A DNA stretch of 64,000 nt from an uncultured Bacteriovoracaceae bacterium (GTDB lineage: Bacteria; Bdellovibrionota; UBA2394). Below the pieces are notes generated by a model. It was not told the origin of the DNA and searched no databases. It was given only the letters and a program-made list of their open reading frames with translations. The stretch is taken from the NCBI GenBank assembly GCA_964598565.1, contig CAZRCG010000010.1, positions 25,188 to 89,187 of the forward strand, read 5' to 3'. Positions 11,287 through 40,127 of the stretch are shown piece after piece. The position numbers were made by a program, and so were the translations under genes. Each line of letters opens with the position of its first letter. Position 1 is the first letter of the stretch.

Positions 11287-11319
11287 GTCACAAGTTTATT
11301 ACAATTTAGGAGGGGAAAA

Positions 11320-13194: not shown

Positions 13195-13217
13195 GAGCTC
13201 AAGAAAGGAATTTGACC

Positions 13218-14300: not shown

Positions 14301-14332
14301 GACGGGTTTAAATATCTTTTTATGAGATAATA

Positions 14333-14367
14333 AATGCGGGGTTCTTGACAGCCCCGCATTTTTTTCT
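14333..14367 (+). terminator. Rho-independent terminator
   Basis: AATGCGGGG - TTCTTGACAG - CCCCGCATT followed by TTTTTTT, immediately after the S8 paralog. Confidence 0.7.
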
Positions 14368-14457
14368 ACACGCTACTTCCACGACAAAATACCTTCGTCA
14401 ACACGATAGCATGCTTGTCGCCTTACCATTGTTGATTTGAGTTACAATAGGGGTGAG

Positions 14458-15246: not shown

Positions 15247-15467
15247 TTGGAAGACGCATTCTCAATATAAGAACTTCGATTCATAATATGGCTCTATTAC
15301 TCCGCCTTTAGTGCTTTGGCGACAGGGCCAATATGCTAAATAGTCCATGATTCACAAAACACATGATTCTTAGTTCTCTCTTCGGTTAGTCTGTGAGTGA
15401 AGCGCTGGTCGTCGGTCGTTTTGTCTCGATGCGGCGAAGGGTCTTTTTTTGAGGGGGAGGATATTCT

Positions 15468-17378: not shown

Positions 17379-17410
17379 TTGGGAGGACTAAAGCTCGATA
17401 CCGTAGTTGA

Positions 17411-18085
17411 GTGGAAACAGTGAGTTTTTTGAGAAGTACCTTGGGTCGAAAGATGGTGATGGCCCTAACAGGCCTGGCTCTTAGTCTTTTTTTGTTTACG
17501 CATGTCGCGGGTAATCTATTGGTCCTGGTCGATACGGCGAAATTCAACGAGTATGCGTGGGCGCTGGAGAATTTGGGGCCCTTGCTTTGGGCAGCTGAAA
17601 TCGGGCTCATCGCTCTTGTCGTGGGGCATCTTGTGATGGCCGTTCAAGTGACGCGACGAAATCGAAGCGCTCGCCCTGAAGTCTATTACAAGCGAGAATC
17701 GAGTGGTCGAAGTCGTCGCAGTCTAGGATCTTCGACGATGGCTCTGTCGGGGGTCTTAATTCTTGTTTTCATTGTTTATCATATCACTCACTTCAAATAC
17801 GGCGAAACTGCGATGCTGGAACATCAAGGTAAGCCCATGCGAGATTTGGCGGGGCTTGTGGTGGCAGAATTTTCCGATATTAGTGAAGTGCTCATTTATA
17901 CCGTAGCGCTGGTGGCGATCGGCCTGCATCTTCGCCATGGTTTTCGATCGCTCTTTGATACCTTAGGCGTGGCAAGCGCTCGCTTTGAACGCTGCTTTAA
18001 AGGCTTTTCAGAAATTTATGTCATAACTGTAGTGGCCGGCTTTATTGCGATTCCTTGGGCCATCTATTTAGGAGTAGGCCGATGA
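17411..18085 (+). CDS. sdhC: Succinate dehydrogenase cytochrome b558 subunit
   Basis: About 220 aa, five hydrophobic helices with conserved His residues. Directly precedes sdhA and sdhB. An alternative start at M 17453 is possible. Confidence 0.75.
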
Positions 18086-19995
18086 ATCTTGATTCGAAAG
18101 TTCCAGGGGGAGATCTCGCTTCTAAATGGACTCGACACAAAGAAGATCTAAAACTTGTGAATCCTGCCAACCGTCGAAAGCATCCTATTATAGTGGTGGG
18201 CACTGGCTTGGCAGGTGCCTCGGCGGCTGCATCGCTCGGCGAATTAGGTTATCCAGTGCGTGCTTTTTTTTATCACGAGAGCCCCAGACGTGCTCATAGT
18301 ATCGCAGCCCAAGGTGGTATTAATGCCGCTAAGAACTATCAAAACGATGGGGACTCGGTGCACCGCCTATTTTACGACACAATCAAGGGAGGTGATTATC
18401 GCGCGCGCGAGGCGAATGTCCATCGCCTCGCCGAGGTGAGTGCCAATATTATCGATCAGTGCGTGGCGCAGGGAGTTCCTTTTGCACGCGAGTACGGCGG
18501 CCAATTGGCCAATCGCTCGTTTGGCGGAACACAAGTATCTCGTACATTTTATGCACGAGGCCAGACGGGTCAGCAACTTTTGTTGGGTGCTTACGGCTCA
18601 CTCATGCGCCAGGTGAATTTGGGCTCGGTGACTCTGTTTCCTCGGCGCGAGATGATGGATCTGGTCGTGGTGAACGGCCAAGCGCGAGGCATCATTACTC
18701 GTAATTTGGTCACGGGAGAGCTTGAAATCCATCATGCGCATGCGGTGGTGCTCGCAACCGGCGGTTATTCGAATGTCTTTTATCTATCGACCAATGCGAT
18801 GAATTCAAATGTCACGGCCATCTGGCGTGCTTACAAACGCGGTGCAGGCCTGGCCAATCCTTGCTATACTCAGATTCATCCGACATGCATTCCGGTTTCT
18901 GGAGACTATCAGTCGAAATTGACATTGATGAGTGAGAGCCTTCGAAACGATGGACGCGTATGGGTGCCAAAGGCAGCGGGCGACACGCGCAAGGCAAAAG
19001 ATATTCCTGAGAGCGAAAGAGATTATTTTTTGGAGAGACGCTATCCAAGTTTCGGAAATTTGGTTCCTCGAGATGTCGCTTCGAGGGCGGCGAAGTCGGT
19101 ATGTGATGAGGGCCGTGGCGTAGGCGCGTCTCGTCAGGCCGTCTTCTTAGATTTTTCAGACGCGATTAAGCGTCTTGGGCAGCAGGCGATCGCTGATAAA
19201 TACGGAAATCTTTTTGAGATGTATCAGAAGATTACGGATGAAAATCCCTATGAAACTCCGATGAGAATTTATCCCGCGCCTCATTATACGATGGGAGGTT
19301 TGTGGGTAGACTACAATTTGATGTCGACCATTCCGGGCCTTTTCGTGGCGGGAGAAGCAAATTTTTCCGATCACGGCGCAAACCGTTTGGGTGCTAGTGC
19401 CTTGATGCAGGGACTAGCCGATGGTTATTTTATTTTGCCTTATACGTTGGCGCACTATATCGCAGGGCAGTCGTTTTCTCCGGTAACCGGCTCGGAGCCT
19501 GCATTTATCGACGCTCGAAAAGAGAGTCAGGCGAAGATCGATCGATTTTTTGCCGTCCAAGGTAAAGTGCCGGCTAACGAATTTCATCGACGCCTTGGGC
19601 GTCGCGTATGGGATGCGATTGGGATGGCTCGATCAAAGGTGGGATTAGAAAAAGTAATCGGTGAGATTCAAGAGCTACGCAGTGAGTTTTGGTCTCGATT
19701 GGCGATGCCGGGCGCAGCATCGACGCTCAATCCCGAATTAGAATTGGCCGGGCGAGTATCGGATTTTCTGGAGTTTGCCGAAGTAATGGCGATGGATGCT
19801 CTAACTCGTGAAGAGTCGTGTGGGGGTCACTTTCGAGAAGAATTCCAAAATAACGAAGGCGAAGCAAAACGAGATGATGAATCGTTTTCTCACGTCGCCG
19901 TATGGGAATATCAAGGGGACCAAAAACGTCCCGTTCGGCACAAAGAAGAATTATCGTTCGAAGCGGTCAAGATGAGTCAGCGAAGTTACAAGTGA
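18082..19995 (+). CDS. sdhA: Succinate dehydrogenase / fumarate reductase flavoprotein subunit
   Basis: FAD-binding [23 protein letters not shown]-like [13 protein letters not shown], and a Bacillus-type long form. Start taken at MNLDSK, overlapping the sdhC stop. Confidence 0.9.
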
Positions 19996-20008
19996 CAGAG
20001 GAGCGACT

Positions 20009-20773
20009 ATGAAGGTCATTTTAAAAGTATGGCGGCAGCGAAATTCTGAAAGCGCGGGGGCTTTCGTGATGTATGAGCGAGAGGCCGTATCTCCTGATAT
20101 GTCTTTTTTAGAGATGTTGGACGTGCTGAACGAGGAGCTTGTAAAAAAGGGAGAAGAGCCGGTCGCTTTTGATCATGACTGTCGCGAAGGCATTTGTGGA
20201 ACCTGCGGCATGATGATCAACGGATTGCCCCATGGCGGCCAACCGGCCACGACCGCCTGTCAGTTGCATATGCGTCATTTTAGCGAAGGCGATTTGATCG
20301 TCATTGAACCCTTTCGAGCCAAGGCATTTCCTGTACTAAAAGATCTCTGTGTCGATAGAAGTTCTTTCGATCGTGTTATTAAAGCCGGGGGTTATACATC
20401 GGTGAATACGGGGTCGGCGCCAGAGGCCAATGCCATTTTAGTTTCTAAAGAGACGGCCGAGCAGGCCTTTGATCATGCGGCGTGTATTGGATGCGGGGCT
20501 TGTGTCGCAACGTGTAAGAATGCGTCGGCGATGTTGTTTGTGAGTGCGAAGGTATCTCAAATGGCTCTCTTACCACAGGGGCATCCTGAGAGAGGTCGCC
20601 GGGTTGTTTCGATGGTTGCCGCTATGGATCAAGAAGGCTTTGGGGCCTGCACAAACGAAGCAGAATGTTCGGCGATTTGTCCGAAATCCATTCCCTTTAC
20701 GTCGATTACGCGTTTAAATCGAGAGTATATAAGAGCGGTCGTTACAGGAAGCAACGTGGCTGCCAAAGATTGA
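20009..20773 (+). CDS. sdhB: Succinate dehydrogenase iron-sulfur subunit
   Basis: [15 protein letters not shown] and [11 protein letters not shown] cysteine clusters. RBS GAGGAG upstream. Confidence 0.9.
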
Positions 20774-20785
20774 GATAGCAATGTT

Positions 20786-22252
20786 ATGTCTTCTTTTTCG
20801 ATAGAAGAAAAACTTAGGTGGTATGAACATTTTTTGAATCTGAGTCGAAAGATGCAGGACGAGTCGCTGCAGTCGGTCTGCCGCTATTTGATGGACGATG
20901 CTATTGAAGCCGCTCGAGCCGAAACAGGTTATTTTCTCACGGTTGATTCTCAAGGCAAATTTAAGATCATTTACGCTCGAACAGGCGGTCGAGACGATAT
21001 TGCTAGAGCCGACCAACATTTTTCAGAGAGTATTGTTCGCCGAGCGGTCGAACTCCAATCACCGGTGATTATTGACGATGCCTTGGCGCATCCTGAATTT
21101 CGTGAGGCGAAATCAGTCATTGCCGGTAATCTTAAATCAGTCTTAGCGGTGCCCTTCTTTTATAACAAAAAGCTCGTGGGTTTGGTGTATTTAGAAAATA
21201 GAAATCAGACTCAGTATTTTGCCCCAGATCTTCTCGAGTTGTTGAATGTTTTTTCAAGTCATGCCGCTGTACTACTGTATACCAAAATGAATGAGGCTCC
21301 AGCCTCGTCGACGGCTCTGGCCGTAGAAAGTTTGCAGTCTAAGAATACTCGTATGCAGAAGGTACTGCAGATGGTTGAAATGGCCGCGCAATCTGATTCA
21401 TCGGTTTTGATTTTGGGCGAAACGGGCACGGGCAAAGAAGTTTTGGCTAACCATCTTCATCGTCTCAGTAAACGAGCCTCCAAGCCGTTTGTTCCCATTA
21501 ACTGCTCGGCGATTCCCGATACTCTCATCGAAAGTGAGCTTTTTGGTTACAAGAAGGGGGCCTTCACGGGCGCCGCAGGCGATCGCGATGGCTTGCTGCG
21601 AAAGGCCGATTTAGGCACTGTCTTTCTCGATGAGATCGGAGATTTGCAGCTTCATATGCAGGTCAAGCTTCTGCGCGTGATTCAAGAAAAAAGATTTACT
21701 CGTCTTGGCTCTACGGTCGAAGAGGGTAGTGACTTTCGCTTGATTTCGGCAACTCATCAGCCGCTTGATGAGCAGATTCAAAAAGGCTTTTTTAGGCAGG
21801 ATCTTTTCTTCAGAATCAATACCATCACCGTGGAGCTGCCGCCTCTGCGAGAGCGACTAGAAGATTTAATGGACCTAGCTCAAACATTTATTGAAGAGAC
21901 GGCGGCTGAAACGAATCGCTCTATAAAAGGATGTGACGAAAGCGCCCGTCTGAAGCTCTTAGACTTTGATTGGCCAGGAAATATACGGCAGCTAAAGAAT
22001 GCGATTCAGCGAGCGTCGGCGCTCGTGCCTTCCGATCAAAAAAATTATATCTTTCGGGGGGACGATTTTGCCTTTCTCACGACCAAAGTGCAGGCGTTGG
22101 ATCTTCCCTCCCTCCAAGATGCTAAAGATGAATTCATTCGAAACTACGTGAAGAAGGCCATTCTGATTCATAAGGGAAATAAATCCAAAGCGGCGAAAGC
22201 CCTGGGCGTTGACCCCAAGACGCTCTATCGCCATTTACTTGAAGATAAGTAG
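20786..22252 (+). CDS. Sigma-54-dependent transcriptional regulator with an N-terminal GAF domain
   Basis: GAF-like N-terminus. Motifs GETGTGKE, ESELFGYKKGAFTGA and GNIRQLKN. C-terminal Fis-type HTH. Confidence 0.85.
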   Translation: MSSFSIEEKLRWYEHFLNLSRKMQDESLQSVCRYLMDDAIEAARAETGYFLTVDSQGKFKIIYARTGGRDDIARADQHFSESIVRRAVELQSPVIIDDALAHPEFREAKSVIAGNLKSVLAVPFFYNKKLVGLVYLENRNQTQYFAPDLLELLNVFSSHAAVLLYTKMNEAPASSTALAVESLQSKNTRMQKVLQMVEMAAQSDSSVLILGETGTGKEVLANHLHRLSKRASKPFVPINCSAIPDTLIESELFGYKKGAFTGAAGDRDGLLRKADLGTVFLDEIGDLQLHMQVKLLRVIQEKRFTRLGSTVEEGSDFRLISATHQPLDEQIQKGFFRQDLFFRINTITVELPPLRERLEDLMDLAQTFIEETAAETNRSIKGCDESARLKLLDFDWPGNIRQLKNAIQRASALVPSDQKNYIFRGDDFAFLTTKVQALDLPSLQDAKDEFIRNYVKKAILIHKGNKSKAAKALGVDPKTLYRHLLEDK

Positions 22253-22272
22253 ATCGGCTTACGGTGTCGTAA

Positions 22273-22619
22273 CGCTTTATAAGCGGGCCAAGGCAGGTAG
22301 GAAAAACAACCCTAGCAAAGCAGTGGTTAGCGTCTCAAAAAGGAGCTTACTTTAGCTGGGACCTTGAGACTGATAGAGATCGGCTCTTATCGAGAAAATT
22401 TCCCGACGAAGAAGCCGTCGTTTTGGATGGAATTCATAAATATCCTCGATGGAAAAGATAGCTGAAAGGAATCTACGATCACTCGCAAGGTTTTCAGACG
22501 ATACTTGTGATGGGCAGTGCAAGACTTGAGATCTATGAAAAAGGGGCCGACAGTCTCTTTGGTCGATATAATTTGCTGCGTTGGCCACCCCAATGTCGTA
22601 CTCTCGGCGATTCATGACT
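22273..22619 (+). pseudogene. Decayed remnant of an AAA_14/DUF4143-family ATPase gene. It is 5'-truncated, frameshifted and 3'-truncated.
   Basis: Frame 1 reads RFISGPRQVGKTTLSKQWL...VVLDGIHKYPRWKR*, a Walker A plus a degenerate ifiDEiQ..P.W box. After a frameshift near 22460 it reads LKGIYDHSQGFQTILVMGSARLEIYEKGADSLFGRYNLLRWPP..*, resembling the TGSs...L.GR...l.Plsf box. No start codon, and the C-terminal DUF4143 part is missing. Confidence 0.55.
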
Positions 22620-22736
22620 CGGCCTACCTTGTATTGCGTAATTACGAAATACACTCTTCAGGTTTGTGCAAGTGTAGCAAAATGACGCCGTGCCCCATTG
22701 CTCCTTTGCCTTCCGTAGGCGTAAAATGAAAGAAGC

Positions 22737-23420
22737 GTGAATTCTGAGCTCTCACTTGTGCCTCTCTTTAACGGAGAAGATTTGATTCGGTTCGTAACGG
22801 CGGTTTTGGTTGCCCTCGTCTGTGGATTTGTCATTGGTATTGAACGCGAGAGTAAGGGCAAGCCGGCAGGCTTACGCACCTTAGTATTAATTTCGATAGG
22901 TTCCTGTCTCTTTTGTCAGGCTTCTCACTTGGTGGCCCTGAAGACGGGCGATCCTGGCAGAATTGCGGCTCAAATTGTGACCGGGATTGGCTTTCTGGGA
23001 GCGGGCGCCATTCTTCAGAAATCTCAGCAGGGCTATATTGCCGGATTAACCACCGCGGCGAGTATTTGGGTGACTGCCGCCATCGGCATGTTGGCAGGAC
23101 TTGGTTATTATATATTTGCGTTGGTCGGGGTTTCGTTGGTGGTATTGGCGCTGCGGCTCTTGGCGCAATTAGAGGGCTTTCTCTTTTACGACAACAATAT
23201 TGAAGTACGACGAATTCTTTATGAATCGAATTTCGGCAAAACGAAGTGGGAGCTTATCGGGCAGTTAGAAGAGAATCTCATTCGGCCCGACGAATATGTA
23301 TTTCTCGCGGGAGTGCACGGGCGACCGTGCCTCGAGCTTCGGTTCAATCACAAAAACAGAAATCATCGTTCATTTTTGGCTCAGGTCGCGGGATCTAATC
23401 AAATTCTTGAGATCGTCTAG
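22737..23420 (+). CDS. mgtC: MgtC/SapB family membrane protein
   Basis: VIGIERESKGKPAGLRT plus hydrophobic helices. GTG start. A C-terminal ACT-like domain. Confidence 0.75.
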   Translation: MNSELSLVPLFNGEDLIRFVTAVLVALVCGFVIGIERESKGKPAGLRTLVLISIGSCLFCQASHLVALKTGDPGRIAAQIVTGIGFLGAGAILQKSQQGYIAGLTTAASIWVTAAIGMLAGLGYYIFALVGVSLVVLALRLLAQLEGFLFYDNNIEVRRILYESNFGKTKWELIGQLEENLIRPDEYVFLAGVHGRPCLELRFNHKNRNHRSFLAQVAGSNQILEIV

Positions 23421-23443
23421 TCTTTCTGTAAGTCTTAGCTTTC

Positions 23444-24280
23444 ATGCGCCAAGTTTTGATTACAGGAAGCTCGAGTGGTTTTGGTCATGATTTAGTGGGG
23501 CTCTTTCTTCGGCGGGGTTATCGGGTGATCGCCACACTGAGAAATGCCTCAAGCCGCCGAGATATTTTTTCAAATGAACTTTCGAAATATCCAGACAAAC
23601 TCCTCATTCGAGAACTTGATGTGACGCGTGCCGTGGATCGGCAGGCGCTGGTGAAAGAATTTGGCGAGCTTGATATTCTCATCAATAATGCGGGCTTTGG
23701 TCTTTACGGCGCCTTCGAAGATATGTCGGAAACTCAAATTCGAGACCAGTTTGAGGTTAATTTTTTTTCTGTCTTAAATCTGACTCATGATTTCTTGCCT
23801 GCCCTGAAAAAGCGGTCTGGCCGCGTTATCGTTTTGTCGTCGGCGGCGGGCTATATTGGCGTCCCTTTTGGCTCCCTTTATGGAGCGTCGAAGTTTGCCC
23901 TCGAAGGATGGGCGGAATCACTATGGTATGAGCTGAAGACGCAAGGAATTCATATCACTCTTGTCGAGCCGGGCCAGTTTCGTACGTCCTTTTCTCAGAA
24001 CATGAAATATGCCGAACATTTTAGTGATCCCTTTTCGCCGTATTTTAAAATGTCGAAGGCCTTCAAGCAGTTTCGTGAAGATCGAAGTCAAAAAAGAGGT
24101 GTGCCGAGCGATAAGGTGCTCAAGACCATTTTGTCCGTCGCCGAAATGCCGTGGCCTCCGCTTCGACTGCGCTGCGGTACGGATGCTCGTCTCGGGTTTT
24201 GGTTGAAGTGGCTTCTGCCCGAGCGTCTCTTTTTAGGTCTACTCAAAAGCGTATTTTCGAAGGTCTATCTGGGAAAATAA
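23444..24280 (+). CDS. SDR-family oxidoreductase
   Basis: ITGSSSGFG (the TGxxxGxG motif), NNAG, and YGASK (the YxxxK motif). Confidence 0.85.
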   Translation: MRQVLITGSSSGFGHDLVGLFLRRGYRVIATLRNASSRRDIFSNELSKYPDKLLIRELDVTRAVDRQALVKEFGELDILINNAGFGLYGAFEDMSETQIRDQFEVNFFSVLNLTHDFLPALKKRSGRVIVLSSAAGYIGVPFGSLYGASKFALEGWAESLWYELKTQGIHITLVEPGQFRTSFSQNMKYAEHFSDPFSPYFKMSKAFKQFREDRSQKRGVPSDKVLKTILSVAEMPWPPLRLRCGTDARLGFWLKWLLPERLFLGLLKSVFSKVYLGK

Positions 24281-30404: not shown

Positions 30405-31457
30405 ATGAACACTTTGATGCGCAAAACACGAAACCTAGAGTCTGCAAATATTGCAGAGATAAGTCGGCAGGGTGATATAAATCGTACCAAGTCGAGGGTC
30501 TTACTGTCGGAACTTCAGCACTTTCATTGGAGCGGTACCGTGGAGCTGAGATCGGGTGAACGTCTCAAACGTCTTCATCTGGTGAAGGGCAGGGTGGTTC
30601 GAATTCAGTCCAATCTCTCCTCAGAACTCTATGGATCTATTTTAGAGACTCATCTCGCTGTACCCCGAGCCGATCTTGACGAAGCCCTTCGTCTTCAGCG
30701 TGAACTCTTTCCCAATATGAAAGTTGGGGATATTCTGAAAAATCATCTGTCAGAACGTCGACCTAAGTTGACTGAGCTACTCTCTGACGAGGGTTTGAAG
30801 CTTGCCGAGCGTCTGCAGTTTGTGAATAGCTTGATTCAGGCGCTTACCTGGGTGAGCGGATCATTTCTTTTAAATCCCGCCAAAGCAAAAGAAGCGGGTG
30901 ATTCGGCCCTATGTTCCATCGATATTTCGGAGGCCTTAAATGACTTGCTCGATTTTCAGACTCGAGAGTCGTTGGCCGTTTTTTCATCTCTCCCTCTATG
31001 GCCTGAGCAGGTGGGACAGGTCGCACTGAGCCGCTATGCCTTGTGGAATATCTTGGCGAGCCTTCGAACTCGATCGCTTAGTGGAGTGTTATTGATTCGA
31101 AAAGATCAGAAACTCTACGAGATTGTTGTGAAGCAGGGTTTGCCTATGATTCTGTATGAAGGGACCTTTGCGAAACCTAGACAATCGATTGTTGTGCGGC
31201 ACGCTGGGCAAGACCACGAAGAGTTTTTTCAAGATCAAATATTTCACCTTTTAAGTTTTACGACGGGATCAGCCTACTTTCGTTCGTTCGATAGTTCATC
31301 CGGTGGTGGTGCGGTGGTGCCGGCTTCCATGGAGATCGTCGAATCCACGGCCATTTTACCTGAGGCCGAACTGAGTATTGACGAAGTATCAAGCGTACAA
31401 GGGCTTGTGCCCCAGTGGCGAAAGAATCTTCTTCGATTATTCTCCTGGCGACGTTAA
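30405..31457 (+). CDS. Hypothetical protein, possibly with an N-terminal DUF4388-like domain
   Basis: 350 aa. An N-terminal GDI..sr..LsELq....sGtvel..g...k.l.l.~G.vv pattern. No catalytic motifs seen. Confidence 0.4.
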   Translation: MNTLMRKTRNLESANIAEISRQGDINRTKSRVLLSELQHFHWSGTVELRSGERLKRLHLVKGRVVRIQSNLSSELYGSILETHLAVPRADLDEALRLQRELFPNMKVGDILKNHLSERRPKLTELLSDEGLKLAERLQFVNSLIQALTWVSGSFLLNPAKAKEAGDSALCSIDISEALNDLLDFQTRESLAVFSSLPLWPEQVGQVALSRYALWNILASLRTRSLSGVLLIRKDQKLYEIVVKQGLPMILYEGTFAKPRQSIVVRHAGQDHEEFFQDQIFHLLSFTTGSAYFRSFDSSSGGGAVVPASMEIVESTAILPEAELSIDEVSSVQGLVPQWRKNLLRLFSWRR

Positions 31458-32411
31458 ACCTTTATGCTTTGAGCGGTAGGGTGCAGCCATAAAACGAGCA
31501 TTGGCTTTCATATAGTCTCTCAATTTTTCCAAGACTCGAGCTTCAATCTGTCGTACTCGCTCTCTGGTGATGGAATAGGTCTCGCCAATTTCTTGAAGCG
31601 TTTTTGGGCTTTCCGCTCTCAAACGTTCTCGAAATATGAGCAGTTCTTTACCTGCCAACGAGCGTTCAAAAGTATTCAGTCGTTCAATGAACTCGCCGCG
31701 AATTTCTCGATCAGCGAGAGCATCATCGATATCTTGCGAGGGATCTCGCAAGATCTGGAGTAGGGAATTTCCTTCAGAAGAGTCGCTTTGCAGGGGGGAA
31801 TTTAATGAGACATCTCGTCCTGACAAGCGCTGGGACATCTCGACGACTTCTCTTTCTTTGACCTGAAGTCGGTCAGCCAGCAACTTGGGTTCTGGGCTCA
31901 ATCCTTGCGCCTCAAGTCGATTTTTCTCTTTCTGAAGTCGATAAAATAATGAGCGCTGCGCTTTGGTGGTGCCTACCTTAACGAGCGAGAAATTTTTCAG
32001 AACGAAGGCCCGTATATAAGCCTTGATCCAATAGCTGGCGTACGACGAAAGTTTGGCACCTTTCTCAGGATCAAATTCTTTAACCGCTTGAAGCAAGCCG
32101 ACATTGCCCTCTTGAATAAGATCGAGAAGATGAATGCCAGTTCGAGAATATTCGTAAGCAATTTTTACAACGAGCCTAAGATTGGCCAGTATGAGAATTT
32201 TGGCTTTCTGAGGGTCGTGATCAACGAGGTACCCTTCGGCGATCTCGCGCTCTTTTTCAGGGCTGAGCAGGGGATAGTCTTTGATGCTTTGAAGGTAGAG
32301 CTGAAGGGCTTCTGTTTTAGACGGAACGATGGCGCTAGGCGCTAAAGGCACTGGAAAAGCAGAGTCGGCCTTCGATGTTTCCGTGCTGACTTTCTTCGAC
32401 CGCGGCGCCAT
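31437..32411 (-). CDS. rpoH: RNA polymerase sigma-32 factor RpoH
   Basis: DLIQEGNVGLLQAVKEFDPEKGAKLSSYASYWIKAYIRAFVLKNFSLVKVGTTKAQRSLFYRLQKEK is near-collinear with the E. coli RpoH region 2 plus the RpoH box (QRKLFFNLR). About 25-aa N-terminal extension. Confidence 0.85.
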   Translation of the reverse strand: MAPRSKKVSTETSKADSAFPVPLAPSAIVPSKTEALQLYLQSIKDYPLLSPEKEREIAEGYLVDHDPQKAKILILANLRLVVKIAYEYSRTGIHLLDLIQEGNVGLLQAVKEFDPEKGAKLSSYASYWIKAYIRAFVLKNFSLVKVGTTKAQRSLFYRLQKEKNRLEAQGLSPEPKLLADRLQVKEREVVEMSQRLSGRDVSLNSPLQSDSSEGNSLLQILRDPSQDIDDALADREIRGEFIERLNTFERSLAGKELLIFRERLRAESPKTLQEIGETYSITRERVRQIEARVLEKLRDYMKANARFMAAPYRSKHKGLTSPGE

Positions 32412-32420
32412 GATAAAAAC

Positions 32421-33110
32421 CTACCTTGCAGCAGCCTGCTGAGCAAGATATCGGCTTATCGATTGTTCTCTCTCGGCTGGCGATGGCCAGGTGGCGAGAA
32501 GCGACGGCCCTAGCATGGACAATCCAGCCCACCACGAGCCGCCTATTCTGTTCTGTGTCGTTTCCTTAAGTCGCTCAATAACGGTTTGCCACGCTGCAGC
32601 ATCCCCGAGTGCTAATACCGTCTCGCGGTCACTTGCTCGAATCTGTGGTTTAAAAAAAAGCCGTTCGAGGGGGGAGGAATAAAAATCGACAAAGCCCAGC
32701 CACAACAAAAGAGCCTCCTGCTCGCGAGTGGTCAAACCCTGCCAAACATAAGAGCACGCGTAAACATAAAAGTTCTTGCCTCGTCTTAATCCAACAATAT
32801 CGGCTCCCGTAGAATTGGCACCCGTTCTGTCGCTGCCGACCATGGCTCCTACAGTGCTCGCATCAGTCCTAACGCTGCCGCCCATCGTGGCACCCATAGC
32901 ATTAGCATCCTTCCTGCTGCTGCCGCCCATCGTGGCCGATGTATTCTTAAAAAAATAGAGATTCACATGGTATCGAAATCGGGCCTCGAATCGAAGGCTC
33001 GCCTCACCGGCCGAAGAGGTCGCGCCTTCAGAGCGCAGCTGAAGTAATAAAATGATGATCGAGGGCGCAAACCAAAGTGCCGCGAGCAGCGCTACTATGA
33101 GCCAAAGCAT
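32421..33110 (-). CDS. Hypothetical membrane-anchored protein with internal 14-15-aa repeats, co-transcribed upstream of rpoH
   Basis: N-terminal TM MLWLIVALLAALWFAPSIIILLL. Repeats ATMGGSSRKDANAMG / ATMGGSVRTDASTVG / AMVGSDRTGANSTG. Its stop lies 9 nt before the rpoH start. Confidence 0.55.
   Translation of the reverse strand: MLWLIVALLAALWFAPSIIILLLQLRSEGATSSAGEASLRFEARFRYHVNLYFFKNTSATMGGSSRKDANAMGATMGGSVRTDASTVGAMVGSDRTGANSTGADIVGLRRGKNFYVYACSYVWQGLTTREQEALLLWLGFVDFYSSPLERLFFKPQIRASDRETVLALGDAAAWQTVIERLKETTQNRIGGSWWAGLSMLGPSLLATWPSPAEREQSISRYLAQQAAAR
32820..32940. repeat. Imperfect tandem repeat, about 42-nt period, inside the CDS 32421-33110
   Basis: CGCTGCCGCCCATCGTGGC is repeated at 32871-32889 and 32913-32931. 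Related flanking copies encode the peptide repeats. Confidence 0.5.
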
Positions 33111-33184
33111 AAGCGTATCTTTGATGGCTTTTCGTTAAATGGCAAGACTTGGGGTATCTTTCACGGGAGGTGGACCACCCCAGC

Positions 33185-34213
33185 TTAGAGCGTAACGTAG
33201 ATCTCTATTTTTTTTGGGCCGTAAAACTGAATCGCCATCAAGCGATTGTGTTCAGAACACAGCACCCTCATATTATCTGTATCGGTTTTGCCCCCTGCCG
33301 CCAACGGCTTGCAATGTTCAAACTCCAACCTGAAGCGACTCTCACATCGACGATGGCTCAGCCGATCTTTATATTCACATCGACCTCCCGCTCGTTCCCA
33401 CACAGTATGTCGAATCGCCTTTGGTATATAGCGGGATTGGGATTGAATCTGGGATTGGGGCTGAGAGAGAGCTACTTGCTGAGAGGTTGAAGCACGCCCT
33501 ATCTGGGACGGGGGTGCCTCTTGATTGCCGGCGTAAGTTTCGCCCGTCGTGACTGCGGCCGGAAAAGGTGAATTTTGAGGAAATGGCTCTCTGGATGCCT
33601 TATAACTGACCTCATCTTCAGATTTACGTTTCACCGTATTCTTGTCTTTGGCCTCCTTAAGCAAGCGCTTTACTCCCGCTTCAAAAACCTCCGACAGGGC
33701 GATAGATTTTATGGCCCTTAGCTCATCCAATAAATCACTGACCTCTTTCGATACTACAAACTTTAGTTCTCGAAGTTCAGCGGATAGGAGTCTCTCTTTA
33801 TCTTTAGGTTTCTCAACAGGCTGTTCACTCTGCGCCACCAAAACCACTTCCACTTCTCGTTTCGATTTATGCTTACACTGAGCAATGAGCTTGCTGGTTT
33901 TCTCTGATTGCCATTTGGTTGGGCTGACTTTTGATTCTTGATAAAGAAAGCGATTGATCTGAGCTGCCGTAGTCATCGAAAGCTCACCCTCTTCGATATG
34001 TTTTTTTACTTCAGGCGCTTTCTTAAGGAGGCGCATGGCGTGAATGCGTTCTGAGGCTTGCGACTCACTATAGTGGAGTTCTTTGACCACAAACTCCCAC
34101 AGTGAACTGTAAGCTCTCACGCTGTAGAGCCTTCTTGATTCCACTTCGGCCTGGTTCTTATATACGTTGACATCGTAGAGGTGTGTTAGAAGCGAAGCGT
34201 CGAAGCATCTCAT
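33185..34213 (-). CDS. HNH endonuclease with an N-terminal DUF222-like domain (13E12-repeat-type HNH protein)
   Basis: C-terminal RHTVWERAGGRCEY...HRRCESRFRLEFEHCKPLAAGGKTDTDNMRVLCSEHNR is a classic HNH motif. The N-terminus SLWEFVVKELHYSESQASERIHAMRLL resembles DUF222. Start uncertain (M34213, or upstream to 34285). Confidence 0.65.
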   Translation of the reverse strand: MRCFDASLLTHLYDVNVYKNQAEVESRRLYSVRAYSSLWEFVVKELHYSESQASERIHAMRLLKKAPEVKKHIEEGELSMTTAAQINRFLYQESKVSPTKWQSEKTSKLIAQCKHKSKREVEVVLVAQSEQPVEKPKDKERLLSAELRELKFVVSKEVSDLLDELRAIKSIALSEVFEAGVKRLLKEAKDKNTVKRKSEDEVSYKASREPFPQNSPFPAAVTTGETYAGNQEAPPSQIGRASTSQQVALSQPQSQIQSQSRYIPKAIRHTVWERAGGRCEYKDRLSHRRCESRFRLEFEHCKPLAAGGKTDTDNMRVLCSEHNRLMAIQFYGPKKIEIYVTL

Positions 34214-34390
34214 TGCGGTAGCCCTCGCTCGCAGTATTGCGGCGCAATATCTCATTTTCATCAGCCCTCGTCCTGAGCATCTCACTACAGCCGCCCGCGC
34301 CCTCCGAATAATCTCATTCCTTCTTCAGCCTCTCTCGTGTCTGAATTGTTACCAAACGGTTCACGAACAATCTCATTCCTTCTTCGGCCT
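34204..34390. repeat. Cluster of degenerate direct repeats (core AATCTCATTCCTTCTTC(A/G)GCC, sub-core ATCTCAT) in the 5' region of the HNH gene
   Basis: Near-identical 24-mers at 34307-34330 and 34367-34390. Weaker copies at 34246-34262 and 34204-34214. Spacing is about 60 nt. Confidence 0.45.
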
Positions 34391-34861
34391 GACTCGCTCT
34401 CGTTCGAGCATCTCGTATAAGGCCTGGCATTCTTCTCGCCATAGGCTGGCCCTCCAACGGTGAGTAAAGAGCTCAGCCCAATGCGGATTCTCACTGAGAG
34501 GATTCTCAAGAATATCAGCCTCTAGAAGATTGAGACGCTCGACTAGAAGGGCCTGCAAGCTATTATCGGTCGTTGATGGAGTCAGATTCTTTCTGCAGTA
34601 TGAAATTAGGCGAAGACAGCGTTCGTCATCGAGTCGTTCATTCCATTCAAAGAGTTCATCCCAGTCGTACCAGTGATAGTTGCGTTTGGCGTTCTCTGCA
34701 AGATCAGGCGAAGGCTCTTGCCTGGTGGTGATTTGAAACTCCAGAAGGCGGCGCTGTCTTGAGTCTTGGTAGCGGCAATCAAAGTCGGTTCGAATGGCCG
34801 TCGCTACCAATTCGAGCCGTTCCAAAAAAAATGATGGAATGAATGAGAGGGCCAGTTCCAT
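34373..34861 (-). CDS. Hypothetical protein coupled to the AAA ATPase
   Basis: 162 aa starting 5 nt after the AAA gene stop. W/E-rich (WYDWDELFEWNERLDDE). No known domain recognised. Confidence 0.5.
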   Translation of the reverse strand: MELALSFIPSFFLERLELVATAIRTDFDCRYQDSRQRRLLEFQITTRQEPSPDLAENAKRNYHWYDWDELFEWNERLDDERCLRLISYCRKNLTPSTTDNSLQALLVERLNLLEADILENPLSENPHWAELFTHRWRASLWREECQALYEMLERERVRPKKE

Positions 34862-34866
34862 GGTGT

Positions 34867-36363
34867 TTAGGTCCGCGACGCCTTAACCGCGCGGGTATCG
34901 GCCCAACGCTTAATCTCTTTGATTTGCTCTGCCATCGTCGTCGCTAAAGGCACCATGCGCCCAGCAGCTTTAAAAAGATCTTCCATCGCGAGAGGGCGCT
35001 TATTATCTTTGTAAGCGAGTACGAGTCCAGACACGACCACCTGTTCACACTCGGCTCCGTTGAAGTTGTTCGTGGCCTTTGAAAGCTCCACCAAATTGAA
35101 CTTCGAAGTGTCGAGGTCTCTCTTCTTAAGATGAACACTAAAAATCTGCTGTCGCTCTTTCTCAGAAGGAAGATCAACAAAAAAGATTTCGTCGAAGCGC
35201 CCTTTTCTTAGAAGCTCGGGCGGCAGACGATTAATTTCGTTGGCCGTGGCCGCCACGAAGACAGGCGTGGTATGCTCTTGCAGCCACGTAAGAAACGAGG
35301 AAAAGATACGCGCTGTTACGCCTTTGTCGCCTTGATCATATCCGGCGACTCCCTTTTCAATTTCTTCCAACCAAAGAATGGCGGGTGATACCGCTTCAAT
35401 TTGTTGGATGGCCCTACGAAAACTCTCTTCAGGAGTTCCAAGAACGCCACCATACAATCGATTCATATCAAGCTTGTAGAGAGGTAGGTCCCATGACGCC
35501 GCAATGGCTTGGGTGCAAAGGCTTTTTCCGCAACCGCTAATCCCCGTCATGAGAATACCTTTTGGCATTCTAAGACCTGCCGCTTGAGCTTCTTTTGAAA
35601 AAAAGTCTGATCGATCGCGAAGCCAATCTTTGAGGTTCTCGAGCCCTCCGATATCTTCCAGATCATACTTCGTCGGAACAAATTCTAAAACGCCATCGCG
35701 GCGAATAATGCGAGATTTCTCTTCAAAGATCGTCAACAGCGCGTCGCTCGTCAGTTCGCTCTTGCCGACGAGCATCTTTTGAAAAATGAGCTTGGCTTCA
35801 TCGAGTGTTAGGCCCAAGGCGCCCTTCAGCAATTTCATACGCTGTTCTTCGTTTAGCTGCACCTTCAACTTAGGCAGCGATTTAAGTACGCTTTCAAAAA
35901 TCGTTTGTAAATCACTCTCATCTGGCAGAGAAAACTCCACCGTAATCAGTTCCTTCATCAAGTCGTCTGGAATTTCGGCTCTTGGTGAAATAAGAAAGAG
36001 GGTTTTGAATTTATTCTTATTGAGTTGAAAGACATCACGAATCAAGCGCTTGAGCAGAGACATGGGTGCTAGAGACCATGAAAAATCTTTCACCACAAAG
36101 AGCTGGGGTGTTGGGTCGTTGAGAAATTTTTCGAGAGCTTCTTCAAGAGGTACTTTTTTTCCGTCTCCAAACCCTCTCGTTTGTGACCAAACAGAAAATC
36201 CTACCGGTTGACTGAAGCCCGACTGCGATAGTTTCTTAAGAGCTTGTTCGACGCGCTCTTCTTCCCAGCTTTCAATCCAGACGAGGGGATACTTCGAGGC
36301 CACGAGCCGCTTGATTTCGTCATAGCTATTTCTTCGGAACGATTTTAGTTCGAGCTTCGCCAT
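34867..36363 (-). CDS. Classic-clade AAA+ ATPase with an about 250-aa N-terminal domain (Ycf46-like family)
   Basis: Walker A GISGCGKS, Walker B ILWLEEIEK, and second region of homology ATANEINRLPPELLRKGRFDEIFFVDLP. Confidence 0.8.
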   Translation of the reverse strand: MAKLELKSFRRNSYDEIKRLVASKYPLVWIESWEEERVEQALKKLSQSGFSQPVGFSVWSQTRGFGDGKKVPLEEALEKFLNDPTPQLFVVKDFSWSLAPMSLLKRLIRDVFQLNKNKFKTLFLISPRAEIPDDLMKELITVEFSLPDESDLQTIFESVLKSLPKLKVQLNEEQRMKLLKGALGLTLDEAKLIFQKMLVGKSELTSDALLTIFEEKSRIIRRDGVLEFVPTKYDLEDIGGLENLKDWLRDRSDFFSKEAQAAGLRMPKGILMTGISGCGKSLCTQAIAASWDLPLYKLDMNRLYGGVLGTPEESFRRAIQQIEAVSPAILWLEEIEKGVAGYDQGDKGVTARIFSSFLTWLQEHTTPVFVAATANEINRLPPELLRKGRFDEIFFVDLPSEKERQQIFSVHLKKRDLDTSKFNLVELSKATNNFNGAECEQVVVSGLVLAYKDNKRPLAMEDLFKAAGRMVPLATTMAEQIKEIKRWADTRAVKASRT

Positions 36364-36401
36364 GGATCTCTCCCGTAGCGAGGTCCTCCCCTGAGGAGCC
36401 T

Positions 36402-37142
36402 CTAGTTGTAGAGTCTCTTCGAATCGCTTTTAACGACTCTCAGTCGTTTTCGCATTCGTTGATAACGCCACTTGTCTAAACTGTTTTTAATCCACTGAAG
36501 CCCACTTTTACCGCGGCCTGATGGAGGTCGACGTGCCAGCACATAGCCCACCACAGCGCCCGATAAATGAGCGATGGTCGATATAGCCGATGTCTGACCT
36601 GGAGCTTGTGCACTCCACAGAGCGTAAAATTCGATGGCCACCATGATATATGCAAAATATTTCATTTTCATCGGAAAGACAAAAAAGAACAAAACCACTT
36701 GGTGTGGCATGACAACCGATACGCCCATGATACAGGCGAAGACAATGCCAGAGGCTCCGATCGTGGGGAGTCGATAGGTATCGGCATCGATTAATCCAAA
36801 GAGGCAAACGCAGAGACCTGTCAGAAGACCCGACCACAGACAAAACGATCGAAAGCGTGAAGTCCCCCAAAGATCTTGTAACATACTTCCGAACATCCAC
36901 AGGCCCAGAGCATTAAACAATAAATGCATCAGACCGCCATGAAGAAAAACCCAGGTGATCAATTGCCATACGGCCCCTTGAAAAACTAAAGAGGGGTTTA
37001 AGCCAAAAGTTTCAAGAAACCATCGGTACGACTGGGGTTCCGCCCAAGGGCCACCTTGAAGAGCCTGTTGAATGAGAAAGACAATGCTGCAGGCAATGGT
37101 AAACCCTTTGATAAGACCACGAAAGCGAGGAAGATACATCAT
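36402..37142 (-). CDS. Rhomboid-family intramembrane serine protease
   Basis: 6-7 TM helices. GASGIVFA (Ser) and HLSGAVVGY (His) are the rhomboid catalytic dyad motifs. Confidence 0.8.
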   Translation of the reverse strand: MMYLPRFRGLIKGFTIACSIVFLIQQALQGGPWAEPQSYRWFLETFGLNPSLVFQGAVWQLITWVFLHGGLMHLLFNALGLWMFGSMLQDLWGTSRFRSFCLWSGLLTGLCVCLFGLIDADTYRLPTIGASGIVFACIMGVSVVMPHQVVLFFFVFPMKMKYFAYIMVAIEFYALWSAQAPGQTSAISTIAHLSGAVVGYVLARRPPSGRGKSGLQWIKNSLDKWRYQRMRKRLRVVKSDSKRLYN

Positions 37143-39037
37143 GGGCGCTTTAATCCTTCTATAAAGCTTTTATCGTGACTACCTGAAAGAAGCGAGGCTT
37201 CATCTTCAAGAGAGGTCTGGCGTAACATTTCTAAGATTTCATTCGCATTAATGAATCGGTCGTCCGGCTTTTTTTGAAGACATTTTAATATGATGATTTC
37301 CATTAATTCTGGAATATCCGATTTGATCGAACGAGGCGAGGGAGGAGGCGTATGAAGATGATGATAGCCTGGATTTTCCATAGGAAAAGGTACTTGACCT
37401 GTGAGCATCTCAAAAAGGCATACGCCAAATGAGTAAATATCGGTTCGATGATCAATAGGAGCCCCTTCGACTTGTTCCGGTGACATAAAATAGGGCGTAC
37501 CTCCAATAATTGACTGCTCTGAATGGAGTTGATTCACAACCCGTGCCAATCCAAAATCCATGAGTTTTATAATCTTTGAATCGGTCAGCATCATGTTATT
37601 GGTGGTGATATCTCGATGAATCACCTTTTTTGAGTGGGCATAGGCCAGCGCTTTGAGAACTTGCTTTGCGAGAATGGTCGTGGTCGAAAGTCGAAAATGG
37701 CCCTTTTTCTTCAGTAACTCTCGGATGGTTTTTCCTTCAATAAACTCCATCGATATATAGTAGTTGCCGTCTTCAATGCCAGCGTCGAAGACGGTGACAA
37801 TATGAAGATGGTTGAGAGCGGCTAAACTTTTAGCTTCTCGCAGAAATGTTTCCACTATTTTTTCGTCATGCTTAAAATGGGAATTTAGAATTTTCAACGC
37901 GACCTCTCGGCCTAAGATTCGATCGCGTGATCGATAGACAATCCCCATGCCTCCGCGGCCAATTTCTTCAATGCGCTCATATCGATGCCGGCCACGATCT
38001 TGCTGACTGAAGGCGGGAAAGCCCTCTTTTCGTTCGCGCGTCTTGTTCGCTTTCTTCACGTGCTCTTTGAGTCGAACAAGGTGAGTGCTGACCTGTTTAA
38101 AAAGGGGGTTTTCTCCAGCGATGCGTTCAAAAAGTTTTAGAGCGTCTTCGCTGCGATGGGATTTTTCAAACGAAAGGCCGAGGTAGTATAAAATATTTAA
38201 AATGGTATCGTCGACGATGGCGTCGGGGTCTTCGCACCAGTGGTCATAGGCCTTCTGTAGATGTTGAGCCGCCTTCTTGAAGTTTCGTTTCTTCATGAAA
38301 GCTTTGCCGAGAACGAGTTTGGCATTCTGAAACTGAGGGTCTTGCGCACCCACCCGCTCCAGAAGATCGATCGCTTGATTCATATGTCCTGACTTTAAAA
38401 GTGAAAGAGAAGCTTGGTAGGGATCATCATGTTTTAAGTGAAAGTCGAAGTCATTATTTTCGGACGACGTAAGTAAAGCGTTTTTAATCGAGGTCGGGGT
38501 AAAAAGTCGAAACTGAATTTCAGGATAGGTCTTCTGAAGTTCTTCATAGAGAGTGACATTCTGTTCGTAAGCCTCTCGATGCACCAAGACACTTGAGAGA
38601 CTTCGGGTCTCTTCAAGATACGATTTAAGCTCTTCAAGCTGACCGAAGAGCTGAGGAACCGACTCGCTCAAAAGATGAAGCGCCTTGCGGCGCTCTTCTT
38701 TCGGATCCACTAAGCCCCATCGTTCCCCTTGAGCTTCGATTTCCGATTTCAAAGAAGTCAAAAGAAGCTCGAAGTGGGCGAGGCTAATTTTATAACCAGA
38801 AAGAAATGTCCAACGCTTTCGCTTTTTAAGATCTTCTAGTTCGCTCTCACTTGTTTGATCCACAAAGGCGAAACTTAGAATTCCAATATGGGGATCCAGT
38901 CGCAGTGGCAAGATCCGATTGCGCGTGCAAAAATCAAGAGAGAGGCTTTCGACCAAATCTCGTGGAATTTTGATCTGCGATAGATCTTCGAGTGTCAGCT
39001 CAGGCGCGACACCTAGCGATAGTACAGACTGACCCAA
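37139..39037 (-). CDS. Ser/Thr protein kinase with an N-terminal T2SSE_N/MshEN-like domain and TPR repeats
   Basis: C-terminal Hanks kinase: GRGGMGIVY, VALKIL, HRDITTNNMML, DFGLAR, GTPYFMSPE. The N-terminus LEDLSQIKIPRDLVESLSLDFCTRNRILPLRLDPHIGILSFAFVD is MshEN-like. Central TPR-like repeats. Overlaps the rhomboid gene by 4 nt. Confidence 0.85.
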   Translation of the reverse strand: MGQSVLSLGVAPELTLEDLSQIKIPRDLVESLSLDFCTRNRILPLRLDPHIGILSFAFVDQTSESELEDLKKRKRWTFLSGYKISLAHFELLLTSLKSEIEAQGERWGLVDPKEERRKALHLLSESVPQLFGQLEELKSYLEETRSLSSVLVHREAYEQNVTLYEELQKTYPEIQFRLFTPTSIKNALLTSSENNDFDFHLKHDDPYQASLSLLKSGHMNQAIDLLERVGAQDPQFQNAKLVLGKAFMKKRNFKKAAQHLQKAYDHWCEDPDAIVDDTILNILYYLGLSFEKSHRSEDALKLFERIAGENPLFKQVSTHLVRLKEHVKKANKTRERKEGFPAFSQQDRGRHRYERIEEIGRGGMGIVYRSRDRILGREVALKILNSHFKHDEKIVETFLREAKSLAALNHLHIVTVFDAGIEDGNYYISMEFIEGKTIRELLKKKGHFRLSTTTILAKQVLKALAYAHSKKVIHRDITTNNMMLTDSKIIKLMDFGLARVVNQLHSEQSIIGGTPYFMSPEQVEGAPIDHRTDIYSFGVCLFEMLTGQVPFPMENPGYHHLHTPPPSPRSIKSDIPELMEIIILKCLQKKPDDRFINANEILEMLRQTSLEDEASLLSGSHDKSFIEGLKRP

Positions 39038-39123
39038 AGGAACCCCCCAAAGCCTATTATAGGCGAAAAGAACGCTGGTGCAGTGCGTCGAGCCAAGATG
39101 GTCTCGTTAACGACTTGGCCAAA

Positions 39124-39852
39124 ATGATAGGTCTAAACAATGGAGGTTTGCTTGAAAGGCCTTGTTTGGGTGATAATGGAGTTTCGATGTCCCAAGCCTT
39201 TAAACTTCTCGTATCCCCTTCGTTACAAGAACTCTATGGCCCGGCTCTGCGTGAGGCAGGACTTCAGTTTGAATCGGTCGATAGGCTTGCCGCCGGCTTT
39301 TCAGATCAAGCGGATGCCGCCTTTTTAGACTTGCGGCCCATGGAGGCGCGAAAGGGTTTACCGGACTTAGGCGATAAAGTTCCTGTCATGACCCTCGTGT
39401 CAGAGTCGACATCACGCAGTGACTTAAAAGAACTGAAGCAAAAGGGGGCGCGCCATTTAGTGGCGGAGAATACGCCGGCTTCAGAGCTAATTGTTCGTCT
39501 TATGGCCCTTTTGCAAGAAGTCCGGGATACTCAAACAGGTGAATTTCGTAGCGGCAAGCGAGTTTGGTTTCAACAAGAAGCCGAACTTACGGTATTTGAC
39601 CAGGTTCATCGCGCGTGGACGACGACGCTCAGTGAAACGGGTATTTTTGTACGTACCGGTCTAAGTTTTCCTCTCTATTCGACGGTGCAGTTGAAGTTCC
39701 AGCTTTTGGGAGAGTCGAGCCCTTTTGTCTGCCACGGCGTGATTGTTCGGCAAGAAGTCGAGGGTCCCATACGCGGACTCGGCATTATGTTTCAAAACTT
39801 GTCGGGAGAACAGATTCGCCGCCTAGAAAGTTTTCTTGAGCTATGTCGCTAA
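39124..39852 (+). CDS. Degenerate receiver (REC-like) domain fused to a PilZ domain protein
   Basis: The REC-like portion (AFLDLRPMEA with the DxxMP Asp, PVMTLVSES, K...HLVAENTP) lacks the N-terminal DD pocket. The C-terminal PilZ has RSGKR...DQVHRAWTTTLSETGIFVRT. Start at ATG 39124. Confidence 0.55.
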   Translation: MIGLNNGGLLERPCLGDNGVSMSQAFKLLVSPSLQELYGPALREAGLQFESVDRLAAGFSDQADAAFLDLRPMEARKGLPDLGDKVPVMTLVSESTSRSDLKELKQKGARHLVAENTPASELIVRLMALLQEVRDTQTGEFRSGKRVWFQQEAELTVFDQVHRAWTTTLSETGIFVRTGLSFPLYSTVQLKFQLLGESSPFVCHGVIVRQEVEGPIRGLGIMFQNLSGEQIRRLESFLELCR

Positions 39853-40127
39853 AGTCTTTTATCGCATTACTGGCTCTAGTATGTGGTGCTCTGGGCGGCT
39901 CCATTTATTTCTCTAAACAAGGATTTCAAGATTTTTCTAAGCTTAAGAATTTAATTGCCGATACCGAAGCTACGGTAGGTCGAATTGAAAAAGAGAATCA
40001 GATGTTACGCCAGCGACTTACTCTTTTACAGACACGTCGTCGTGATATGGCCGAACGAGAGTTGCGAGAGATTCTTGGCTGGGTGAAAGCTGAGGAACTT
40101 GTTTATCTTGAGTCCACTCGAAAGTAG
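39843..40127 (+). CDS. FtsB/DivIC-like septum-formation initiator family protein
   Basis: 94 aa with an N-terminal TM (FIALLALVCGALGGSIYF) and then a coiled coil (IEKENQMLRQRLTLLQ). Overlaps the PilZ gene end by 10 nt. Confidence 0.45.
   Translation: MSLKSFIALLALVCGALGGSIYFSKQGFQDFSKLKNLIADTEATVGRIEKENQMLRQRLTLLQTRRRDMAERELREILGWVKAEELVYLESTRK

Follow-up and report, generated by a model that had tools for sequence, protein, structure and literature searches.

What does a gene for a heat-shock-type sigma factor do at the end of a gene array that also encodes a Ser/Thr kinase, a rhomboid protease and an AAA+ ATPase? The array in question has seven genes and lies on the minus strand of a 64,000-nucleotide (nt) stretch of DNA from an uncultured Bacteriovoracaceae bacterium (assembly GCA_964598565.1, contig CAZRCG010000010.1, positions 25,188 to 89,187), hereafter called the window. 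An earlier description made from the letters alone, the sequence-only reading, had seen in it either a stress signalling module feeding sigma-32 or a defence-like module. We suggest, with a probability of about 50%, that it is an operon-like cluster of composite make-up, restricted to one clade, through which a sigma-32-type factor is co-expressed with a set of genes for membrane proteostasis and signalling. The structural part of this proposal is highly probable. The gene arrangement itself is real and conserved, is previously undescribed and has a narrow phylogenetic range.

The list of open reading frames (ORFs) reproduces exactly the seven minus-strand ORFs that had been reported, with gaps of -4, 38, 5, 87, 74 and 9 nt in the order from kinase to sigma gene (Table 1). 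The domains assigned to them in the sequence-only reading, namely kinase, rhomboid, AAA, HNH and sigma, were recovered with Pfam and NCBIfam. Start and stop codons in the array overlap or sit a few bases apart. Judged by hydropathy, the rhomboid protease and p229 are the only membrane proteins of the array. We looked for a compositional anomaly in the array region and found none, the window holds no mobile-element genes next to the array, and Rfam and tRNA scans gave no matches.

Table 1. Features of the array and its surroundings. Positions refer to the window unless a locus is named; aa, amino acids.
Feature	Position	Strand	Remarks
Ser/Thr kinase, first gene	37139-39037	minus	632 aa, TTG start, Pfam
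Rhomboid protease	36402-37142	minus	246 aa; start overlaps kinase stop by 4 nt; Pfam
Ycf46/Cdc48-like AAA+ ATPase	34867-36363	minus	498 aa; Pfam AAA
p162, predicted helical-bundle protein directly behind the ATPase	34373-34861	minus	162 aa
HNH endonuclease gene	33185-34285	minus	366-aa ORF; NCBI product starts at 34213
p229, protein with N-terminal hydrophobic anchor	32421-33110	minus	229 aa; 9 nt upstream of the sigma gene
Three imperfect repeats inside p229	32802-32930	minus	42-45 nt each
Sigma-32-family (RpoH-like) sigma factor, last gene	31437-32411	minus	324 aa; NCBIfam
Candidate promoter TATAAT at the array head	39053-39058	minus	followed by a G-run and the kinase TTG start
PilZ-domain gene and DivIC-like gene, divergent	38992-40127	plus	beside the kinase in all clade loci and L090
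PATAN (PatA_N) gene, convergent	30405-31457	plus	21-nt overlap with the sigma 3' end
Three-gene block between FIST and DivIC	L084:102-5990, L086:332-6178, L087:407-6224, L088:443-6215, L092:324-6188
PilZ genes of out-group loci	L001:9542-9949, L089:9646-10014, L091:9607-9975, L093:794-1168, L094:189-560

The ATPase was used as the anchor for assessing conservation. Its list of homologues steps from identities of at least 65% (P0001-P0045) to at most 55% (the rest), and the contigs behind twelve listed homologues were looked up, P0001 (L081) being the window's own protein. The clade sample consists of the window and six other genomes (L082/L083, L084, L086, L087, L088 and L092), in which the ATPase is about 66-77% identical to that of the window. 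All six relatives encode, in this order, the kinase, the rhomboid protease, the ATPase, a protein of 160-172 aa, a protein of 178-198 aa and a sigma-70-family factor. The orthology of all conserved array members was confirmed by tblastn and hidden Markov model searches. Spacing in the clade is tight, with gaps mostly from -23 to +24 nt and several start/stop overlaps retained. The sequence-only reading was to be given up if the neighbours were not conserved together; inside the clade they are, in a fixed order of six genes, and of its seven-gene array only the HNH gene drops out. Ortholog identity is 53-58% for the kinase and 64-67% for the sigma factor, whereas for p162 and p229 it has fallen to 21-30% and 16-25%, respectively, so the six-gene order has outlasted substantial sequence divergence. 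The metagenome-assembled genomes of the clade carry the submitter labels Bacteriovoracaceae, Deltaproteobacteria or Bradymonadales, and the nearest out-groups are labelled Oligoflexia or Bdellovibrionota; the host clade is uncultured and probably Bdellovibrio-related.

Outside the clade the cluster is found in part or not at all. The kinase-rhomboid-ATPase trio is kept in all seven clade genomes and also in the more distant locus L090 (ATPase 55% identical), where a full-length kinase ortholog (40% over 655 aa), the divergent PilZ/DivIC genes, the rhomboid gene and the ATPase gene stand together and the other flanks differ. Among the fetched loci, p162, p229 and the sigma gene occur at this place in the seven-genome clade only. 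In five out-group loci (L001, L089, L091, L093 and L094; ATPase 51-54% identical) there is no kinase, rhomboid, p162, p229 or sigma gene within 10 kb of the ATPase. A GTDB scan with the ATPase profile, which served as negative control, gave 80 loci among the matches listed, mostly from other phyla. At the tblastn threshold used, the array neighbours are absent from the 79 Ycf46-type loci of other lineages among these matches, apart from three dispersed matches to the kinase domain and a single match to the sigma-70 family (34% identity, L057), none of which adjoins the ATPase. Likewise, in 80 metagenome loci anchored on relatives of the rhomboid protease (32-42% identity) neither such an ATPase nor a sigma gene lies nearby, and no sigma gene lies within 10 kb of these relatives outside the clade. 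Judged by this distribution, the cluster is layered, with an older trio, a younger clade-specific extension of p162, p229 and sigma factor, and a strain-specific HNH insertion.

The HNH gene is present in one of the seven clade genomes, that of the window, and has no counterpart among the approximately 170 fetched loci, no plasmid relative and no paralogue in the window. Since no relative has it, it is a strain-specific insertion outside the conserved cluster. Its Pfam match is barely above the cut-off (21.5 vs 21.4 bits, 2.6e-4) and is accompanied by a weak DUF222 match; twelve PHROG families, ten of them annotated as HNH endonuclease, back the assignment (best E-value 1.4e-7). The NCBI product has 342 aa and starts at 34213, so the gap behind p162 is 159 nt rather than 87 nt. 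What lies between p162 and p229 differs among the relatives: the slot is closed in L084, L086, L087 and L092, is a 257-nt spacer in L088 and holds an unrelated gene of 317 aa with an S-adenosylmethionine-methyltransferase-like GCGTG motif in L082/L083 (L082:11997-12950). With the HNH gene in the window and the methyltransferase-like gene in L082/L083, the p162/p229 junction is a recurrent insertion site. The free-standing HNH gene is most likely a selfish element that landed in this variable slot.

The sequence around the slot contains two kinds of repeats. The last 33 nt of p162 (34364-34396) recur 59 nt downstream at 34305-34337 with 88% identity, and the stretch from p162 to the HNH start (34204-34396) holds five copies of a motif of the type ATGAGAT (GTGAGAT in one copy). 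These repeats may be a scar or the target of the HNH insertion.

Signals for transcription as one unit were sought at the head of the array and in its gaps. The TATAAT hexamer, the G-run and the kinase start are kept in 5/6 aligned orthologous upstream regions, and the TTG start is common to five of the seven kinase orthologs. A second motif, TTnGCCAA, is invariant in the divergent spacer between the kinase and PilZ genes; it lies at about 39097-39104 in the window, some 35 nt further upstream of the TATAAT, and about 45-70 nt upstream in the relatives. There are no terminator-like sites in the intergenic gaps of the array, and the region upstream of p229 yielded no conserved promoter. It should be noted that the combined scan for promoters and terminators was at chance level (10 vs 8.5 and 12 vs 12.5).

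Based on this arrangement, we propose that the genes would be co-transcribed from the kinase promoter and that their products would jointly serve membrane proteostasis. In brief, the rhomboid protease would clip membrane-anchored substrates, and the AAA+ unfoldase would extract them, with p162 as a clade-specific adaptor; p229 would be the obvious candidate substrate. In this way, the state of the membrane would be coupled to how much of the co-expressed sigma-32-like factor is present or how active it is, and the kinase would supply the input. This mechanistic part of the proposal is unlikely.

Several observations weigh against a single functional unit. In this genome the gaps of 159 and 74 nt that come with the HNH insertion may break co-transcription. 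Scanning the window for the sigma-32 promoter consensus gave no match, a result that is uninformative on the regulon. The trio and the p162/p229 half are separable, as L090 shows: neither of the two genes behind its ATPase is related to p162 or p229, and its contig stops short of a sigma gene. In the five out-group loci it is a small PilZ gene that directly precedes the ATPase. Moreover, the flanks are conserved in the clade as well as the array (FIST, PilZ and DivIC upstream, PATAN and mdh downstream), which makes background synteny a live alternative. On that account the genes stayed together by descent in a slowly rearranging region and have unrelated functions; they are perhaps co-transcribed, and the sigma gene has its own internal promoter. 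It would fit with a conserved block that extends well past the seven genes on both sides, with the breakdown of the array at ATPase identities of 55% or less and with the 80 rhomboid and 79 ATPase relatives of other lineages that lack such neighbours. Runs of genes on one strand are also common in the window, where 11 consecutive plus-strand ORFs of at least 200 aa are found at 10417-24280. However, overlapping or near-abutting codons have been kept in seven genomes despite the drift of p162 and p229 to approximately 20-30% identity, and the kinase-rhomboid-ATPase order survives in L090 with differing flanks. In addition, the flanks gain and lose several genes, among them a block of three between FIST and DivIC and differing genes beyond PATAN, whereas the array itself varies at the p162/p229 junction only. 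A stable array amid changing flanks, together with the retained reading-frame coupling, is suggestive evidence against mere slow rearrangement. We regard synteny by descent as possible, though on the unlikely side.

Scored against NF005143, the sigma-32 subfamily model, the sigma factor is above the cut-off (277 vs 241 bits), and against the RpoH equivalog TIGR02392 it stays below (279.6 vs 323.1 bits); its best models are of the RpoH, RpoS and RpoD types. The RpoH box, a criterion said to go back to Nakahigashi 1995, has the consensus Q(R/K)(K/R)LFFNLR. The window encodes the box-like sequence QRSLFYRLQ, and all seven orthologs share QR[STA]LFY[RK]L; approximately 5/9 positions are identical to the consensus. 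The box serves as a criterion for sigma-32 factors (PMC3464611).

The gene directly upstream, p229, is predicted to be translationally coupled to the sigma gene, which it precedes by 6-15 nt or overlaps in all clade loci. Its N-terminal anchor is a single hydrophobic segment (residues 1-27, Kyte-Doolittle maximum 2.72), found in 5/6 aligned orthologs and also in L092, and basic residues follow it in the sequence. The C-terminal domain has the conserved motifs W..L..E.EALL.W, DRD and GLSxLGPSLL. The repeats stressed by the sequence-only reading are real, with three copies of 42-45 nt at 69-76% identity to the reference copy that encode repeats of the type MGGS..R.DA.., but they are absent from all six orthologs and are specific to the strain.

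These features invite a stricter model of regulated intramembrane proteolysis. In it, p229 is a membrane-bound anti-sigma-32 factor whose anchor is cut by the rhomboid protease, the fragment is removed or unfolded by the ATPase with p162, the sigma factor is set free and the kinase gates the process. The single anchor followed by basic residues would suit such a model, since the positive-inside rule would place the C-terminus in the cytoplasm, the usual orientation of rhomboid substrates. The position of p229 beside the sigma gene and the intact catalytic residues of the rhomboid protease point the same way. However, neither an anti-sigma domain nor another known domain was detected in p229 and its orthologs (Pfam, NCBIfam, PDB; profiles with E up to 10). 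The ortholog of L086 has no hydrophobic anchor, its region being interrupted by Arg-Pro-Tyr-Glu, and in four orthologs the anchor region is interrupted by Arg-Glu. The AlphaFold2 single-sequence model of p229 is unusable, with a predicted local distance difference test (pLDDT) of 47.6. The lack of a sigma gene near rhomboid relatives outside the clade and the strain-specific nature of the repeats count against the model as well. The usual order is sigma gene first and anti-sigma gene second, which is reversed here, and we know of no anti-sigma factor for sigma-32-type factors. We consider this strict model improbable, and there is little chance that p229 is a new membrane-anchored sigma-32 regulator, anti-sigma factor or tether, that is cleaved by the rhomboid protease, extracted by the ATPase with p162 and controlled by the kinase. 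The evidence speaks neither for nor against a control of sigma-32 by rhomboid proteolysis as such.

That the ATPase has a dedicated small partner, as had been claimed, agrees well with p162, which lies behind the ATPase in every clade locus and nowhere else and has only 35 representatives in 1.84 billion proteins. These relatives, found by profile search, are all free-standing proteins of 145-197 aa, and the range of the family appears to coincide with that of the array. Its predicted model is a six-helix bundle (pLDDT 78.7) with generic structural neighbours only. Neither p162 nor p229 has a match in Pfam, NCBIfam, PADLOC or PHROGs; word-based homologue searches with the two returned the query itself or two close fragments only, and a metagenome scan anchored on p162 motifs gave no relative.

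The ATPase (Pfam AAA, 3.2e-22) is soluble, without a hydrophobic segment, and belongs to a family of 7896 homologues whose relatives are named SpoVK/Ycf46/Vps4 by JGI. Its gene is single-copy-like and strongly conserved from phylum to phylum, without these neighbours in the sampled loci of other lineages, and identity is 40-44% in Armatimonadota, Cyanobacteria and others. The Walker A residues G277, C278, G279, K280 and S281 (GCGKS), E334, E336, R386 and R389 are invariant, as is the RKGRFDE arginine-finger region, in line with classical AAA+ and Ycf46 proteins. Among solved structures the closest are the D2 domains of Cdc48/p97/VAT (E approximately 2e-42), which cover residues 222-455 only; for the N-domain of approximately 220 aa, which the whole family conserves, there is no solved relative. 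Matches to the FtsH models TIGR01241 and NF008004 are far below the cut-off and concern the ATPase part only, with no peptidase part. The protein also matches phrog_8638, a phage family of unknown function, over its full length (E 2e-125), so some phages encode Ycf46-type ATPases.

The rhomboid protease (Pfam 3.9e-26, 92.4 bits vs a cut-off of 22.6) consists of the core, with several hydrophobic segments, and a basic C-terminal tail. The S54 residues H68, H73, N77, S131 (in GASG) and H192 are invariant in eight orthologs, and the enzyme is predicted from them to be catalytically active. The arginine-rich tail (36402-36480), with the pattern W-x-x-R-x-R-K-K-(F/L)-x-V, was considered as a p97-type docking motif. 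It is a trait of the subfamily, shared by 68 metagenome relatives (32-42% identity) that have no AAA neighbour, and therefore is not evidence of docking; the idea was rejected.

The kinase is a soluble protein, with no transmembrane segment by hydropathy. It has an N-terminal MshEN/T2SSE_N-like region, TPR repeats and a C-terminal Hanks domain (Pfam MshEN 4.3e-8, TPR_19 2e-8, Pkinase 4.8e-53 with 180.7 bits), and the Hanks motifs are present as EVALK, HRDITTNN and DFGLAR. The MshEN match covers profile positions 4-60 of 90 (33.5 bits). Wang et al. 2016 reportedly defined a 24-residue MshEN motif, RLGxx(L/V/I)(L/V/I)xxG(L/V/I)(L/V/I)...; a regular-expression search found no cyclic-di-GMP-binding RLGxx motif in the seven kinase orthologs. 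Since this motif is absent, cyclic-di-GMP binding by the kinase was rejected.

With these assignments the second idea of the sequence-only reading can be judged, namely an anti-phage defence module of AAA+ ATPase and HNH nuclease, possibly with the kinase, inside a housekeeping operon. The ATPase has weak PADLOC matches to IetA (2.5e-19) besides its full-length match to a phage family, and the kinase has strong PADLOC matches to PD-T4-6 and mad6. The kinase-domain matches are generic, however, and the IetA score of 68 bits is at the level of AAA proteins in general; the ATPase reaches 57 bits against an IteA (NF042959) cut-off of 510, and the array has no IetS-like gene. The nuclease is confined to the one clade genome, with nothing similar in the other fetched loci, and the conservation of the ATPase across phyla, the even composition and the absence of adjacent mobile-element genes in the window do not suit a defence module either. 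As the nuclease is unconserved, the ATPase is widespread and below the IteA cut-off and the kinase matches are generic, we reject a defence module, which is very improbable.

How the proposed cluster relates to known systems is best seen by comparison. Regulated intramembrane proteolysis of anti-sigma factors is known from the Sigma-E/RseA/DegS/RseP type (reviewed in PMC10202637). The array resembles it in having a membrane-anchored protein beside an alternative sigma gene, plus an intramembrane protease gene. It differs in that the protease is a rhomboid (S54) and not a site-2 M50 protease, the sigma factor is sigma-32-like (group 3) and not of the extracytoplasmic function type, p229, encoded upstream of the sigma gene, has no anti-sigma domain, a site-1 protease is missing, and a kinase and a soluble AAA+ ATPase are added.

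A bacterial precedent for cooperation between a rhomboid and an AAA+ enzyme comes from Bacillus subtilis, where YqgP and the AAA+ protease FtsH share in the quality control of membrane proteins (PMC7231995). A rhomboid paired with an AAA+ protein and a proteostasis theme are common to both, the pairing here being deduced from gene order only. Unlike FtsH, the ATPase of the array is soluble and single-domain, without transmembrane and M41 parts, and unlike YqgP, the rhomboid has no extra cytosolic and extracellular domains. In eukaryotic endoplasmic-reticulum-associated degradation, the rhomboid-family proteins Derlin and RHBDL4 recruit Cdc48/p97 (PMC5389986). Here too a rhomboid-fold protein stands beside a Cdc48-like unfoldase, whose closest solved relatives are D2 domains; the tail of the rhomboid is loosely like the VCP-binding motif (VBM) consensus EhRRRRLxhh, which is not evidence of docking. 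However, no similarity could be detected between the N-domain of the ATPase and that of p97, and there is no ubiquitin system. Escherichia coli sigma-32 is controlled by FtsH, DnaK/J and membrane targeting, and these regulators are not encoded with rpoH. A sigma-32-family factor and control that involves the membrane and an AAA+ enzyme, here proposed, are shared, whereas E. coli uses the membrane protease FtsH and has no rhomboid, kinase or dedicated membrane partner in this role. The ATPase itself resembles Ycf46 of cyanobacteria and plastids, with approximately 40% full-length identity to the cyanobacterial loci L059, L068, L072 and L079. The literature on this poorly understood family consists mostly of plastid gene lists.

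If p229 were the regulator of the strict model, the pathway would be the first in which rhomboid-dependent intramembrane proteolysis controls a sigma factor in bacteria, and a bacterial Ycf46-type ATPase would have its first assigned function. If the array is one unit, it would link three poorly understood groups of bacterial proteins, rhomboids, Ycf46-type AAA+ proteins and eukaryote-like Ser/Thr kinases, to heat-shock-type sigma control, and p229 and p162 would offer a testable substrate or partner. If it is synteny only, two orphan families, a slot that captures selfish genes and a separate PilZ-Ycf46 pairing in neighbouring lineages remain.

The latter pairing was seen in 5/5 out-group loci, where the PilZ gene often overlaps the ATPase start and encodes 122-124 aa in the four loci with called genes. 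The pair is a hint that this ATPase family may be under cyclic-di-GMP control. By contrast, the clade of the window has a longer PilZ gene, which is divergent from the kinase instead of upstream of the ATPase. The block between FIST and DivIC, which the window and L082 lack, occurs in five relatives and encodes two unannotated proteins of approximately 480 and 590 aa and a kinase/response-regulator protein of approximately 850 aa. At the other end of the array, the convergent sigma and PATAN genes overlap at their 3' ends in all seven clade loci by 11-84 nt (31437-31457 in the window), and this overlap could give rise to transcriptional interference or antisense effects.

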